Shown here: positions 1 to 6,337 of the stretch, piece after piece
How positions within the stretch are numbered: the first letter of the stretch is position 1
How the letters are laid out: each line of letters starts with the position of its first letter
Source of the DNA: a virus
DNA length: 64,000 nt
Strand: one strand, 5' to 3'
Virus record (IMG/VR): IMGVR_UViG_3300012665_000925
Span: 1-64,000 of that record
Notes under the pieces: model-generated
What the model saw: only the letters and a program-made list of their open reading frames with translations
Told to the model about the DNA's origin: nothing
Databases searched by the model: none
Made by a program: the position numbers and the translations under genes

Positions 1-122
1 GGAGGCCGCTGTGTTGTGGGGGTGTGTGGTTTTTTTTGTTTTTTTTTTTTTTTTTTTTTTTTTTTTTTTTTTTTGGCGGGTATTCGTTTTTTCCGCTGGT
101 TCGTCTGGCTGGTGATTTGGAC

Positions 123-151
123 TTGACTTTGTCTGCGGGTGGTGGTAGACT
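123..151 (+). promoter_or_regulatory. sigma-A-type early promoter
   Basis: TTGACT-N17-TAGACT with extended TG, followed by AAAGGGG RBS and ATG at 178. Confidence 0.85.
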
Positions 152-177
152 TTCTCTGTAATAGAAAGGGGTAGCAA

Positions 178-543
178 ATGGCTACTAAACAAACAGCAAC
201 AGCAAGCGTAAAGGTCTGGGACTTTTCCCTAACTTTGTCTGGTGGCATTATCGGTGAATGGTGCGAGTGGACTTTTACACTTGACTTTTCTCACGGCAAC
301 AGCAAGACATACAACACGGACGAAGTGGCAATCTACGACGAGAGCGACTTGGAAACTACTCTCTGGGACGAAGCAATGCGTATCGTGGAAAAGTATGGAC
401 GAGTAATCTCAACCGAGATGACGGACGTGGAAGTCTGCCCTGACTGCCTAGAACGCATTACGGACGACAACCCGCTTATTGACGAAACTCAATACAGCAC
501 GAAGTTCGGTTCGTGCGTTGGGTGTTGCGACCCGACACCATAA
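178..543 (+). CDS. Early hypothetical protein, acidic, C-terminal CxxC...CxxCC zinc motif
   Basis: 121 aa ORF with its own promoter, RBS and terminator. Confidence 0.85.
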   Translation: MATKQTATASVKVWDFSLTLSGGIIGEWCEWTFTLDFSHGNSKTYNTDEVAIYDESDLETTLWDEAMRIVEKYGRVISTEMTDVEVCPDCLERITDDNPLIDETQYSTKFGSCVGCCDPTP

Positions 544-559
544 CAAGCAAACAACAAAC

Positions 560-593
560 ACCGCTTAGTCAGAAGACTAGGCGGTTTTGTTTT
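560..593 (+). terminator. Intrinsic terminator
   Basis: CCGCTTAGTC-AGAA-GACTAGGCGG followed by a T-rich tail. Confidence 0.85.
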
Positions 594-672
594 GTGCGGG
601 TGGCGGGTTGGGGGAGAGTATTCGTTTTTTCCGTGGGTGCGTGCGGTGGCAACAACTCACTAAGAAATGGAC

Positions 673-701
673 TTGCGAATGTCGGTGGGTAGGTGTAGAC
701 T
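673..701 (+). promoter_or_regulatory. Early promoter
   Basis: TTGCGA-N17-TAGACT. Confidence 0.8.
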
Positions 702-742
702 ACAAGAGTAGTCAAACAAACAACTACGAAAGGGAAATGAAA

Positions 743-982
743 ATGTCTAACTATCCAGAAGGCTCAATGCGAGGCTCGGGCATTTACTCACGAGAAGTTT
801 CATACGAAGAGTTTGAGTGTGAAAACGAAGAGTGCCAAAAGGTAAACGAAGCGGGCGAAACCGCTACGGACGACTGGGGCAACTATTCTGTGGAGTGCGA
901 GTTCTGTGGTTCTACTTATAGTGAGAGTTCGCTATCTGACGATGCTGACGATTACTGGGCGGACTACGACCCGAACAACTAA
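743..982 (+). CDS. Early highly acidic zinc-ribbon protein (79 aa)
   Basis: Start corrected from 587 to ATG 743 (or 737) after the GAAAGGG RBS; CxxxxC...CxxC; 21 D/E versus 3 K/R. Confidence 0.8.
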   Translation: MSNYPEGSMRGSGIYSREVSYEEFECENEECQKVNEAGETATDDWGNYSVECEFCGSTYSESSLSDDADDYWADYDPNN

Positions 983-995
983 ACAAGTCAAGACT

Positions 996-1027
996 AAACC
1001 GCTTACCGAAAAGGTGGGCGGTTTTTT
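996..1027 (+). terminator. Intrinsic terminator
   Basis: AAACCGCTTACC-GAAAA-GGTGGGCGGTTTTTT. Confidence 0.85.
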
Positions 1028-1114
1028 CTTATGCGGGTGCGTGGGTGCGTGGGTGTAGGTGTATTCGTTTTTTCAGTAGTGTTCGCCAGCACGGAGAAGT
1101 TTGTGCGTCTGTGT

Positions 1115-1143
1115 TTGACTTTGTCGGTGGTGTGTGTTAGAAT
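1115..1143 (+). promoter_or_regulatory. Early promoter
   Basis: TTGACT-N17-TAGAAT. Confidence 0.85.
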
Positions 1144-1195
1144 GGTTATGTAGTCAGAAGGACTGATTACAGAAACAGAAAAGAAAAGGGAACAA

Positions 1196-1399
1196 ATGTC
1201 AATCGTAACTCTAGTAGTAGACATCACTTATCCAAACGGCGAAACTCTTAGACCAATCTACGAGTGCCACGGAGAAGAAGGATTTGCTAAGTTTGCGGCG
1301 TGGCACAACGAACACCTAAGCGTTGGAACTACCGCAATCCTAAACGGCTACGGACTAAACAATCCAGAGCCACTAATGACTGTGGCAATCGCCAAGTAA
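1196..1399 (+). CDS. Early hypothetical protein
   Basis: 67 aa; AAAAGGG RBS; flanked by promoter and terminator. Confidence 0.8.
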   Translation: MSIVTLVVDITYPNGETLRPIYECHGEEGFAKFAAWHNEHLSVGTTAILNGYGLNNPEPLMTVAIAK

Positions 1400-1408
1400 G
1401 CCAAACCG

Positions 1409-1443
1409 AAAAGCCCCTAGCCAGAAATGGTTAGGGGTTTTTT
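1409..1443 (+). terminator. Intrinsic terminator
   Basis: CCCCTAGCCA-GAAA-TGGTTAGGGG followed by T6. Confidence 0.85.
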
Positions 1444-1541
1444 CTTATGCGGGTTAGTGCGAAGTTGCGTGCGTGCGTGCGTGCGTAATGAAAAAACGAA
1501 TACTGCGTGCGGACAATCCAACACGCCAAACACGGAACGAT

Positions 1542-4133: not shown

Positions 4134-4176
4134 AGTTTTGTAGTCAAAGTGATTACAAAAAAGCCTAAGGGGCAAA

Positions 4177-4341
4177 ATGACAAATCCATACAGTAATCTA
4201 ACTCTCACCGAAGTAGAGAAAGAAATCGCCGAAACCAAAACCGCTTGGTCGGCACTCTGGAATAAAATCGGCGTGCGTGCGGGTGTGCTTGAAGAGCAAC
4301 TTGCTTTGTTGGAAGAACACGCGAAGACACTTAGAGCGTAG
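4177..4341 (+). CDS. Early small coiled-coil protein (54 aa, MTNPYSNLTL...)
   Basis: Hand-translated; AAGGGG RBS; own promoter and terminator (4354-4381). Confidence 0.8.
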   Translation: MTNPYSNLTLTEVEKEIAETKTAWSALWNKIGVRAGVLEEQLALLEEHAKTLRA

Positions 4342-4444
4342 TCGCAACCGAATACCCGCCTAGCGAAAGTTAGGCGGGTTTCGTTTTGTCTGCGGTGAAG
4401 TGTAGAGCGTTATTATTTTGTTATCAAAAACTTGGTGCTATGAC

Positions 4445-4473
4445 TTGACTTTCTGCGGTAAGCGTGTTAGACT
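4445..4473 (+). promoter_or_regulatory. Early promoter with upstream GTTAT direct-repeat box (4407-4424)
   Basis: TTGACT-N17-TAGACT. Confidence 0.85.
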
Positions 4474-4515
4474 ACTTATGTAGTCAAAAGGATTACGAAA
4501 ACGAAAGGGAACAAA

Positions 4516-4659
4516 ATGCTTACTTACAAATTCACTTACAGCGAGAACGGCTCAGTAGCAATCAGCGAAATCGTAGCAACTAGCGAAGACAAGGCACGCC
4601 GTATTTTCTCAAGCGAAAAGCCTAATGCGGTTTTGATTATGCTAAGCCACAACATCTAA
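4516..4659 (+). CDS. Early small protein (47 aa, MLTYKFTYSE...)
   Basis: Hand-translated; GAAAGGGA RBS; terminator 4671-4703. Confidence 0.8.
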   Translation: MLTYKFTYSENGSVAISEIVATSEDKARRIFSSEKPNAVLIMLSHNI

Positions 4660-4797
4660 ACAAAAAAGTCAAGCCGTCTAGCCGAAAGGCTAGGCGGTTT
4701 TTTCTTGCTCGGTTTTTCTTGGTTGCTCGGTTGTCTGCGGTATTCGTTTTTTCATTCGCTCGCTCGCTGGGCGGGTGGGCGTGCTTAGTTTCTTGAC

Positions 4798-4826
4798 TTG
4801 ACTTTTCTTGTCTGCGGTGATAGAAT
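4798..4826 (+). promoter_or_regulatory. Early promoter
   Basis: TTGACT-N17-TAGAAT. Confidence 0.85.
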
Positions 4827-4879
4827 AACTTTGTTAGTTGAAGTTATTGACTGGCATAAACATTAGAGAAAAGGGAACA

Positions 4880-5158
4880 ATGATTTTCAGTAGGGACTAC
4901 TTTGTCAAGGGCGAAGTGGAAGGTGCTTTGATAGTTGAAGCAAAGAATTACAAGGGCGAAGTTGTAGACACTCGCTCATTCATAGGCGAGAGTGCGGGCA
5001 AGTATGTTTTGACTTTGGCTTGGGAGAGTGGGCGAGAGAGTAAGACTTTTGACAATTTCGCAACCGCTATGAAAATGGCAAACGGCTACTGGGCTAGGCA
5101 AAGTATTTGGCACGAAGACAAAGCGGGCAAGCGTAAGCGTGTTGTGCGGTGGCAGTAG
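4880..5158 (+). CDS. Early hypothetical protein (92 aa)
   Basis: Start corrected to ATG 4880 after AAAAGGGA; terminator 5183-5215. Confidence 0.8.
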   Translation: MIFSRDYFVKGEVEGALIVEAKNYKGEVVDTRSFIGESAGKYVLTLAWESGRESKTFDNFATAMKMANGYWARQSIWHEDKAGKRKRVVRWQ

Positions 5159-5266
5159 TTAGGCGTTAGTTAGTAATTGCTCACCCGCTTAGTCGCAACT
5201 TGGCTAGGCGGGTTTGCTTTGTCTGCGGTAGGTGATTAGGCGTTATCTATTTGTTATGCTTGCTAC

Positions 5267-5295
5267 TTGACTTTTCTCTGCGGTAGTAGTAAACT
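5267..5295 (+). promoter_or_regulatory. Early promoter with upstream GTTAT direct-repeat box (5240-5257)
   Basis: TTGACT-N17-TAAACT. Confidence 0.8.
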
Positions 5296-5339
5296 AGTAA
5301 TGACTAGTTAGAAAGACTAGCCAAAACGAAAGGGACACA

Positions 5340-5549
5340 ATGAACAACAAGACTAGACAATTCCGATTTGAAGTTGCTTACCTATCCTTAGGCGTGGCTT
5401 GTATCTTGGGCGTTGATTTACTGGCAAACCTAGAAACCGAAGACTACTATCACGCTTTTGCTTTGCGTAATGTCTTGGGCTTTGTAGGCTTTGCTTTTGT
5501 TATGTTCACTTGGAACTACATTCAACTAACTAAGTTTCGTAAAGCCTAG
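5340..5549 (+). CDS. Early two-TM membrane protein
   Basis: 69 aa; GAAAGGGA RBS; terminator at about 5564-5597. Confidence 0.8.
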   Translation: MNNKTRQFRFEVAYLSLGVACILGVDLLANLETEDYYHAFALRNVLGFVGFAFVMFTWNYIQLTKFRKA

Positions 5550-5863
5550 ACACTTAGCAACTTACAACCCGCTCAGACTTGGGCGGGTTGTTTGTTTGTG
5601 TGCGGTAATGCTTACTAGTGCTAGGTATTCTCTGCGGTAGGTAGGTAATGCTTGGGCTACTCTCTGCGGACAACTATTAGCAATAGGCGGGGGCAATGGT
5701 TAGCAATGGTTATGACTTTCAACTAATACCTATTTATTATTTAGTGGACGGGGACGGCGGTGGGCGAGAAACAACTAACCCTTTGCTATTGGTTAGTGGG
5801 CTTGGTAATCGTTCGTATCCTAATGACTTTCAACTTACTACTAGTAGTTAGTTGTTAGGTATT

Positions 5864-6022
5864 ACTCATCTACTCATCTACTCATCTGCTTACTTACTCA
5901 ACTACTTACTTACTCACTCACCTAGTCATTCACTTTTTATTTTCTTCACTCACTCATTCACTCACTCACTCATTCACTTACTCACCTAGTCATTCACTCA
6001 TCTACTCACCTAGTCATTCACT
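5864..6022. repeat. C/A/T low-complexity tract with ACTCATCT x3 and ACTCACCTAGTCATTCACT x3
   Basis: 8-mers at 5864-5887; 19-mers at 5916, 5980 and 6004. Confidence 0.85.
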
Positions 6023-6136
6023 TTGATTAGTGTTTCTAATGTTTGTTTCTTTGTTTGACTAAGTAGAATAGAGAAAGCAAGCATAGGCAAATGATTTTGT
6101 TTGTTTGTAAGTATTCGTTTTTTCAGTGTAGTTGTT

Positions 6137-6221
6137 TCGTTCGTATCCAAACGATAATCGTTTGTATCCAAATGACCTTGGTTCGTTCGCATCCAAACGA
6201 CTTTCGTTCGTATCCAAACGA
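6137..6221. repeat. Four 18-bp quasi-palindromic direct repeats TCGTTYGYATCCAAAYGA (iteron or operator-like)
   Basis: Copies at 6137, 6158, 6183 and 6204; a fifth degenerate copy at 5809-5826. Confidence 0.85.
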
Positions 6222-6337
6222 ATTTAGGAAACAAATCGGGGAATGTCGAAAATCCTGCGGAGCCGTCTGACCCGCCAAAAGCACTAGACGCTAAGGTATC
6301 AAAACTTCAGCACAGTAGAGCCATCATCCGTGCTAGT

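Follow-up and report, generated by a model that had tools for sequence, protein, structure and literature searches.

Why does the first 6.2 kb of a phage DNA record contain next to none of the short palindromes that are common in the rest of it? The record is IMG/VR virus record IMGVR_UViG_3300012665_000925, of which positions 1 to 64,000 (64,000 nt, hereafter the window) were analyzed. The window comes from an uncultured freshwater phage that is tailed and large, encoding a terminase (at 9602), a portal, tail proteins, and a DNA polymerase. The purge, its specificity, its borders, the gene cassettes inside it, and the homology at its edge were observed directly. Arguing by analogy with phage T5, we consider it probable that window 1-6240 is the right end of a ~30 kb block at an end of the virion DNA, which would be the first DNA present in the cell during a T5-like two-step entry and would have been purged by restriction. 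An original prediction, made from the window alone, had proposed that this end enters first and unprotected, and that its products protect the rest of the genome. From that interpretation we retain the purge with its marks of avoidance, host-type early promoters, and an edge that matches the DNA ends of relatives; position 1 proved not to be a genome end, and no anti-restriction gene was recognized in the 20 ORFs searched in the window and a relative.

Eight 4-bp palindromes (AGCT, ATAT, CATG, GCGC, GTAC, TCGA, TGCA, and TTAA) are absent from window 1-6240, and two others occur once each (ACGT at 425, GGCC at 4). These ten words together have 1858 sites in 6241-64000, or 32.2 per kb. At that rate 198 sites are expected in 75-6240, where one was found (Poisson log10 P = -83.8). 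The longest gap between ten-word sites is 5821 nt (425 to 6246) and the next longest in the window is 222 nt; the counts per successive kb from the window start are 2, 0, 0, 0, 0, 0, 23, 36, and 28. CCWGG is likewise absent from 1-6240, vs. 154 copies in the remainder of the window. The first words past the edge are TCGA (6246), GTAC (6340), ACGT (6364), AGCT (6391), and TGCA (6394). These counts confirm the original prediction in its near-loss of 4-bp palindromes from 75-6240, in the missing AGCT, TGCA, TCGA, GTAC, CATG, GCGC, TTAA, GGCC, and CCWGG, and in their return from 6246 (TCGA) and about 6390. CTAG, CGCG, and AATT, which it had called tolerated, are indeed kept (32, 12, and 9 copies), as is TATA (3 copies). 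Its list of purged words was correct as far as it went and incomplete, since ATAT is purged too.

The depletion is specific to palindromes. With both strands pooled, palindromes in the segment have a median observed/expected ratio of 0.02 and non-palindromes one of 0.99 (Mann-Whitney p = 9e-9), and only 2 of the 240 non-palindromic 4-mers have two copies or fewer. The depletion is significant against the rest of the window as well as against non-palindromic words. GATC and CCGG have no copies across all 64 kb (∼200 of each are expected from base composition), so their loss is not specific to the segment. Over window 1-64000, CTAG (341) and AGCT (406) are over-represented.

We next considered how far the purged DNA extends. 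The closest near-complete relative, G001 (125.8 kb; large terminase TerL 90% identical), has a single contiguous purged block at 49,834-80,227 (30.4 kb), in which 13 purged words total 24 hits vs. 30-70 palindromes per kb elsewhere, and palindromes are likewise depleted against non-palindromes there (p = 2e-9). The window is collinear with G001 from the right edge of the block onward, wrapping round the end of the G001 contig, and the window cassettes match cassettes of the G001 block in shuffled order. By this comparison, the purged block is ~30 kb long, and the 6.2 kb makes up no more than its right-hand end:

1..6227 (+): right-hand 6.2 kb of the ~30 kb palindrome-purged block, from word counts, the G001 block, and collinearity
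30..74 (+): run of ~45 T inside the block, 29 nt from the record start, by direct reading

Because the record starts inside the block, nothing about window position 1 points to a genome end, and the genome end proposed there had to be given up. A purge start at 75 failed for a similar reason, as the window start cuts through the purged zone. The T run at 30-74 may be the point where the assembly broke or was linearized.

Of the named phages, Actinomycetia phage DSL-LC01 (TerL 73% identical), Microbacterium phages of ~190 kb, and Gordonia phage GodonK are the closest, and TerL identity to the cultured relatives (Microbacterium phages and GodonK) is 48-62%. Window 1-8000 gave no DNA match among 50,697 phage records, nor did an exact 45-mer of the window in IMG/VR. 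The uncultured relatives are metagenome contigs. Among 59 IMG/VR loci of at least 8 kb, 15 show the step in palindrome density (left density at most half of the right and at most 25 per kb), and in the rest it is weak or absent. The left/right density ratio at the 14 loci that have the border element described below and both flanks is <0.5 in seven, 0.5-0.8 in six, and ≥0.8 in one. Between fixed landmarks, block length among the relatives ranges from ~13 to 30 kb.

The purge bears the marks of restriction avoidance, in that it is palindrome-specific, synonymous, lineage-specific in its word sets, and position-dependent; the tests were positive for each. In coding DNA it operates via synonymous codon choice. 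Fourteen block open reading frames (ORFs) contain one purged word, vs. 82.5 ± 7.2 after within-gene synonymous codon shuffling (300 shuffles, minimum 64) and 115 when recoded with late-gene codon usage. Genes right of the edge contain 262 words vs. 324 in synonymous shuffles, which is mild avoidance only. Interrupted palindromes are also affected: in the window and G001, ACNGT, CCNGG, GANTC, GCNGC, GGNCC, GTNAC, GGNNCC, and CTNNAG are at 0-0.11 of expectation, and AANTT, AGNCT, CTNAG, TANTA, and TGNCA are near 1 × expectation. Avoidance targets particular words, not symmetry as such. Several of the purged interrupted patterns are identical to specificities of known enzymes. CTNNAG was found twice in 75-6240 (23 expected) and seven times in the G001 block (116 expected), and is over-represented in the remainder of both the window and G001; we know of no enzyme with exactly this specificity.

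Different relatives spare different words. G003, with a 14-kb block, retains CATG, GCGC, and TCGA; G004, with a 21-kb block, retains TCGA, CCGG, and AATT; and the weakly purged G002 retains GATC, CCGG, CGCG, GCGC, and TCGA. The words missing genome-wide differ as well: AGCT and GATC in G004 (with CGCG present only once), ACGT, AGCT, GATC, and GCGC in G005, and ATAT and TTAA in DSL-LC01. The depletion goes with position rather than with gene class. Where TerL lies left of the border element (4/4 phages), its density is 18-21 palindromes per kb; where it lies outside the purged side (11/11 phages), the density is 33-59 per kb, at equal GC content. TerL is left of the element in L050, L051, L057 (10001-11389), and L074, and right of it in other relatives, as in the window; hence either the gene or the border has moved within this phage family.

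The block is built as an array of stand-alone early cassettes, each made of a 14-bp box, promoter, ribosome-binding site, small ORF, and terminator. The array spans window 75-5600 and contains the following features:

81, 619, 1062, 2141, 2694, 3193, 4061, 4741, and 6112 (+), and 1502 (-): 14-bp box TATTCGTTTTTTC(C/A), 10 copies
123, 1115, 2738, 3237, 3528, 4105, 4445, 4798, and 5267 (+): starts of nine promoters, TTGACT-17 nt-TAGACT/TAGAAT/TAGGCT
178-543, 737-982, 1196-1399, 1615-1878, and 1878-2075 (+): small ORFs, first five
2275-2604, 2808-3098, 3297-3518, 3563-3715, and 3708-3917 (+): small ORFs, middle five
4177-4341, 4516-4659, 4880-5158, 5340-5549, and 5696-5851 (+): small ORFs, last five
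560-585, 996-1024, 2087-2113, and 3112-3141 (+): long-stem terminators, stems of 11-13 pairs
4354-4379, 4671-4700, 5183-5213, and 5564-5591 (+): further long-stem terminators, stems of 11-13 pairs
143-175, 702-716, 1139-1175, 4129-4165, and 4469-4500: hairpins at the -10 hexamer and 5' end

The 14-bp box has no copies in the rest of the window, and all 41 copies in G001 lie within its purged block. Directly downstream of each of the nine promoters come a ribosome-binding site and then a small ORF. Nine of the ten matches to the promoter pattern in the whole window fall inside the segment, all on the (+) strand; across the block, promoters recur about every 550 bp. In form they suit the main sigma factor of Actinobacteria. 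Almost all cassettes are co-oriented, toward the remainder of the genome. The -10 hexamer and the first transcribed bases pair with a downstream TAGTC or AAGCC as a hairpin, so that each early transcript would begin with a stem-loop.

The ~15 small ORFs in 178..5851 encode 47-121 amino acids (aa), and several products are acidic (pI ∼4.1-4.4). PHROGs and Pfam searches with 10 window ORFs found no anti-restriction family, no nuclease family, and no homolog of T5 A1, A2, or dmp; ORF 2275-2604 gave only a weak match, RecE-like at the C-terminus or to a family of unknown function. An Atlas search with two acidic window ORFs returned unnamed clusters only. Pfam searches with 10 G001 ORFs (eight in the block, two just left of it) detected no anti-restriction, nuclease, or T5 pre-early family; the matches were to a MoxR-like ATPase, a VWA domain, a phosphatase, and a kinase-like AAA_33. 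The anti-restriction genes that the segment was thought to carry were therefore not recognized in these 20 ORFs. The small acidic products are compatible with DNA mimics, although size and charge do not by themselves count as evidence for mimicry.

The right border of the block was compared with the DNA ends of cultured phages. It is built as follows:

5600..6227: non-coding border region, with ACTCATC-type tandem repeats at 5848-6036 and five iterons TCGTTYGTATCCWAAYGA at 5806-5830 and 6134-6225
6228..6297 (+): single-copy terminal-type element (GAAAC...CGAAAA...CCAAAAGC...TAAGGT), homologous to the DNA ends of cultured phages
6338..6856 (+): conserved helix-turn-helix ORF, weak HTH_23 match, homolog of Pumpernickel gp76 (E = 4e-27)
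9602..10987 (+): large terminase gene, outside the purged zone, 41 palindromes per kb

A repeat-rich non-coding region at the predicted inner border (window 5600-6337) is thus confirmed, and it is a candidate stop signal. The same border parts are present at the edge of G001, L006, L009, L011, and L014/15, with degenerate copies in L057. The terminal-type element directly follows the last iteron, and the helix-turn-helix ORF is always next after it, including in L057. A loose pattern for the element gave 14 hits in 4.0 Mb, one per phage and all on the TerL (+) strand. The first palindromes fall within the element, at 6246 (TCGA) in the window and at 12,496 and 12,516 in L057. The element matches the last ~35 nt (3' terminus) of the virion DNA of Microbacterium phages Pumpernickel, Zooman, A3Wally, and Cece. 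The L057 and Pumpernickel elements have an exact 9-mer and an exact 10-mer in common, spaced by 10 vs. 11, and the direct terminal repeat of Pumpernickel (19,963 bp) ends 4 nt past the shared 10-mer. The right end of the GodonK terminal repeat (7,581 bp) is without such an element. Since the right edge coincides with the DNA-end element of relatives, a virion DNA end is predicted at about 6255-6262. By this prediction, the right edge of the purge marks where the virion DNA ends on the right, and the same point would be the inner end of the left repeat copy. This places the predicted terminus on the 6.2-kb side of the window, not at position 1.

The left border could be located in relatives. 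In G001, G002, and G003 it directly follows a small, conserved zinc-ribbon ORF, at the start of the first cassette, and it is sharp to within ~160-500 bp. At both borders of the block the palindrome density changes abruptly, over about 20-500 bp, with no gradient. The left DNA end of Pumpernickel, Zooman, and Cece precedes gene 1 by 62 nt (the Cece record names this gene as the small terminase), and in G001, homologs of both gene 1 and the endolysin sit just left of the purge. The left-terminus motif shared by Pumpernickel, Zooman, and Cece has no convincing match at either candidate left end of G001. No other part of the genome is as rich in palindromes as the DNA just left of the block, with 70-103 per kb (G001 47,000-49,700 = L085 7000-9700; also in G003 and G002).

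These observations could be brought together as follows. We infer a terminal repeat, an order of entry, a pause, and protective proteins. At the end of the virion DNA, the block would probably make up the greater part of a long direct terminal repeat, and it would be in the cell before the protective functions of the phage exist. Some 50 stand-alone early cassettes would be read by host RNA polymerase. Because sites in the block could be cut before the early proteins act, selection would have removed nearly every short palindrome, through synonymous codons and through changes in the spacers. The remaining genome, with its normal site density, would enter or become accessible only after protection is set up. 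For enzymes that the protection does not stop (those for GATC and CCGG here), sites would be lost genome-wide instead. The step-like borders would point to a discrete end and a discrete stop rather than a gradient in time.

Several findings weigh against this scheme. No known anti-restriction family was recognized in the 10 window and 10 G001 ORFs searched. Synteny would place the start of the repeat ~3.3 kb to the left of the purge, where the genome is richest in palindromes. If the left border of the repeat is conserved, the repeat is ~33.7 kb long with its first 3.3 kb unpurged, and the left end cannot lead; the right end would then enter first, with a stop after 30.4 kb. If the repeat border has moved to the edge of the purge, either end could be the leader. 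The homolog of window ORF 8578-9117 is inside the Pumpernickel repeat, yet the ORF itself is outside the block of the window, so the borders are not syntenic. The purge is weak or missing in some relatives. Palindrome counts revealed no such purge in Pumpernickel, GodonK, DSL-LC01, or T5, and a terminal repeat or a first-step transfer alone is therefore insufficient to produce one.

Other explanations were considered for the same data. Entry of the T7 type, which is also a form of restriction avoidance, would have the left edge lead, with ~50 co-oriented host promoters letting RNA polymerase reel the DNA in slowly, so that ~30 kb is exposed with no discrete stop. The orientation of nearly all cassettes toward the rest of the genome and a promoter about every 550 bp fit this picture. 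We regard it as unlikely, though, given that the borders are steps of about 20-500 bp instead of gradients, that a strong terminator closes every cassette, and that the left DNA end is placed by synteny 3.3 kb further left, in palindrome-rich DNA. A terminal repeat could also be vulnerable for a reason other than timing, for instance if its second copy, made at packaging, escapes methylation or modification by the phage. DSL-LC01 is annotated with several methyltransferases, and the right edge equals the repeat end of relatives; on the other side, a copied repeat would be hemi-modified, a state that usually resists cutting, more than 14 specificities would need matching phage methylases, and the repeats of cultured relatives are unpurged. 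This makes it quite an improbable explanation.

Early nucleases of the phage itself, acting to destroy host DNA, could have shaped the block if the purged words were their targets, the block had to coexist with them, and the rest of the genome entered after nuclease shut-off. The word sets vary by lineage, as such a process would allow, and the pre-early functions of T5 degrade host DNA, the escape of T5 DNA being described as unclear (PMC10644984). We hold little belief in this account: twelve to fourteen 4-mers plus about eight gapped words require many enzymes, the block ORFs of the window (47-121 aa) are too small for many endonucleases, and the searches of 10 window and 10 G001 ORFs turned up no nuclease family. 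Last, the block might be a compositional oddity unconnected with defence, such as a foreign palindrome-poor module or the product of a mutational or structural bias. Its GC skew (+0.12 to +0.19, negative afterward) and its mosaic cassettes, shuffled between genomes, would suit such an origin. To this we give hardly any credence, in view of the restriction of the effect to palindromic words, the abundant terminator hairpins, a conserved TerL that is purged only when inside the zone, and the purging of different words at the same place in different relatives. Horizontal acquisition, hairpin avoidance, and mutational bias were each rejected after inspection of the palindrome specificity, the lineage sets, the position of TerL, the codon shuffles, and the abundance of terminator hairpins.

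T5-like entry by an early block was compared with known systems. The host-takeover module of Bacillus phage SPO1, described as a cluster of 26 genes, is similar in consisting of many short early genes. SPO1 takeover genes have their own strong promoters and lie inside the terminal redundancy, and SPO1 DNA carries a modified base. To our knowledge no palindrome purge is known for SPO1. The cultured relatives Pumpernickel, Zooman, A3Wally, Cece, and GodonK resemble the block in having long direct terminal repeats of small (+) strand genes; their repeats differ in being unpurged, at ∼45-96 palindromes per kb, and in their gene order at the repeat border.

T5 and BF23 (Tequintavirus) are the closest model. 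T5 has a long terminal repeat with pre-early genes and host-type promoters (T5 record; PMC10644984), and that article describes a repeat-rich non-coding inner border, as at the window border. It also states that Type I and II systems are ineffective against T5-like phages except where first-step-transfer DNA contains sites. There are differences: the 10.2-kb repeat of T5 has 51-86 palindromes per kb, equal to the next 30 kb, whereas the present block is ~30 kb with 12-14 of the 16 words nearly gone, its two-step entry being proposed by analogy. Homologs of A1, A2, and dmp were not found in the 10 window and 10 G001 ORFs, and the host is taken to be an actinobacterium. The original prediction had cited the first-entering DNA of T5 as a precedent for the purge; T5 shows no general loss of 4-bp palindromes, and the precedent it offers is one of single sites.

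In the Autographiviridae, a Type I system restricts only via motifs in the leading region, and the authors argue for selection on a sub-genomic scale, site location having been ignored in bioinformatic surveys (PMC12455610, published in 2025). The likeness to T7-type phages is that motif position in the leading region decides sensitivity; the difference is that one Type I motif with escape mutants was studied there and that no region-wide palindrome purge is reported (PMC12455610). Leading regions of conjugative plasmids are also the first DNA to enter and are rich in anti-defence genes. For 1751 plasmids the leading region was "not consistently depleted" in 4-8 bp palindromes, according to PMC13478746, so the near-total purge observed here stands out. 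A region-limited palindrome purge in a phage was not described in the searched literature (subscription journals were outside its scope). The principle that restriction acts mainly on first-entering DNA is known from experiments on T5-like and T7-like phages; a footprint this extreme is absent from the searched literature. It is nearly absolute, sharply bounded, and recurs with different word sets in related phages.

More tentatively, and with somewhat less than even confidence, we suggest that this is a large and widespread family of freshwater actinophages that combine a T5-like entry, with a first step of 13-30 kb or up to a quarter of the genome, with a broad, sequence-independent early shield protecting >90 kb of DNA at normal site density against at least 14 Type II specificities. 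If T5-like entry with restriction-driven purging is true, sequence alone would locate the DNA end, the entry stop, and the first-entering segment in uncultured phages. From the list of purged words one would read the restriction specificities that uncultured hosts deploy, among them possibly one for CTNNAG that is not yet described. Words lost only from the block would mark neutralized enzymes, and genome-wide zeros would mark enzymes that the shield cannot stop. The ~50 small early genes would be a pool in which to seek broad anti-restriction functions in Actinobacteria.

Some further features of the block were noted. Its coding strand is G-/T-rich, with a GC skew of +0.12 to +0.19 over window 1-6000 that flips at the border, and its AT skew is negative from 2 kb onward. 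The G/T-rich skew could be a mark of very heavy transcription. Sequencing runs were examined as Logan contigs, with a best word share of 0.36 and window 1-84 skipped as a repeat; no molecule ends showed among them, and stretches left uncovered carry no information. The contig depth in run X1 was 5.7-8.7 over the block vs. 3.8-4.8 to the right (∼1.8 times), a weak hint of a repeat; such depth is not a copy number, and relatives share cassettes. Contigs of four runs differ from the window by gaps or swaps of whole cassettes (window 1055-4747). Either the 14-bp box or the promoter marks each joint (2707 to 3236 in two runs; 1055 to 1466 and 4490 to 4747 in others), so that the conserved chassis resembles a recombination linker. 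The left end of the block carries a pair of genes for a MoxR-like AAA_5 ATPase and a VWA-domain protein (G001 51,190-54,147 = L085 11190-14147). The AAA_5/VWA pair is conserved in DSL-LC01, whose VWA member bears the label cobalamin biosynthesis protein.

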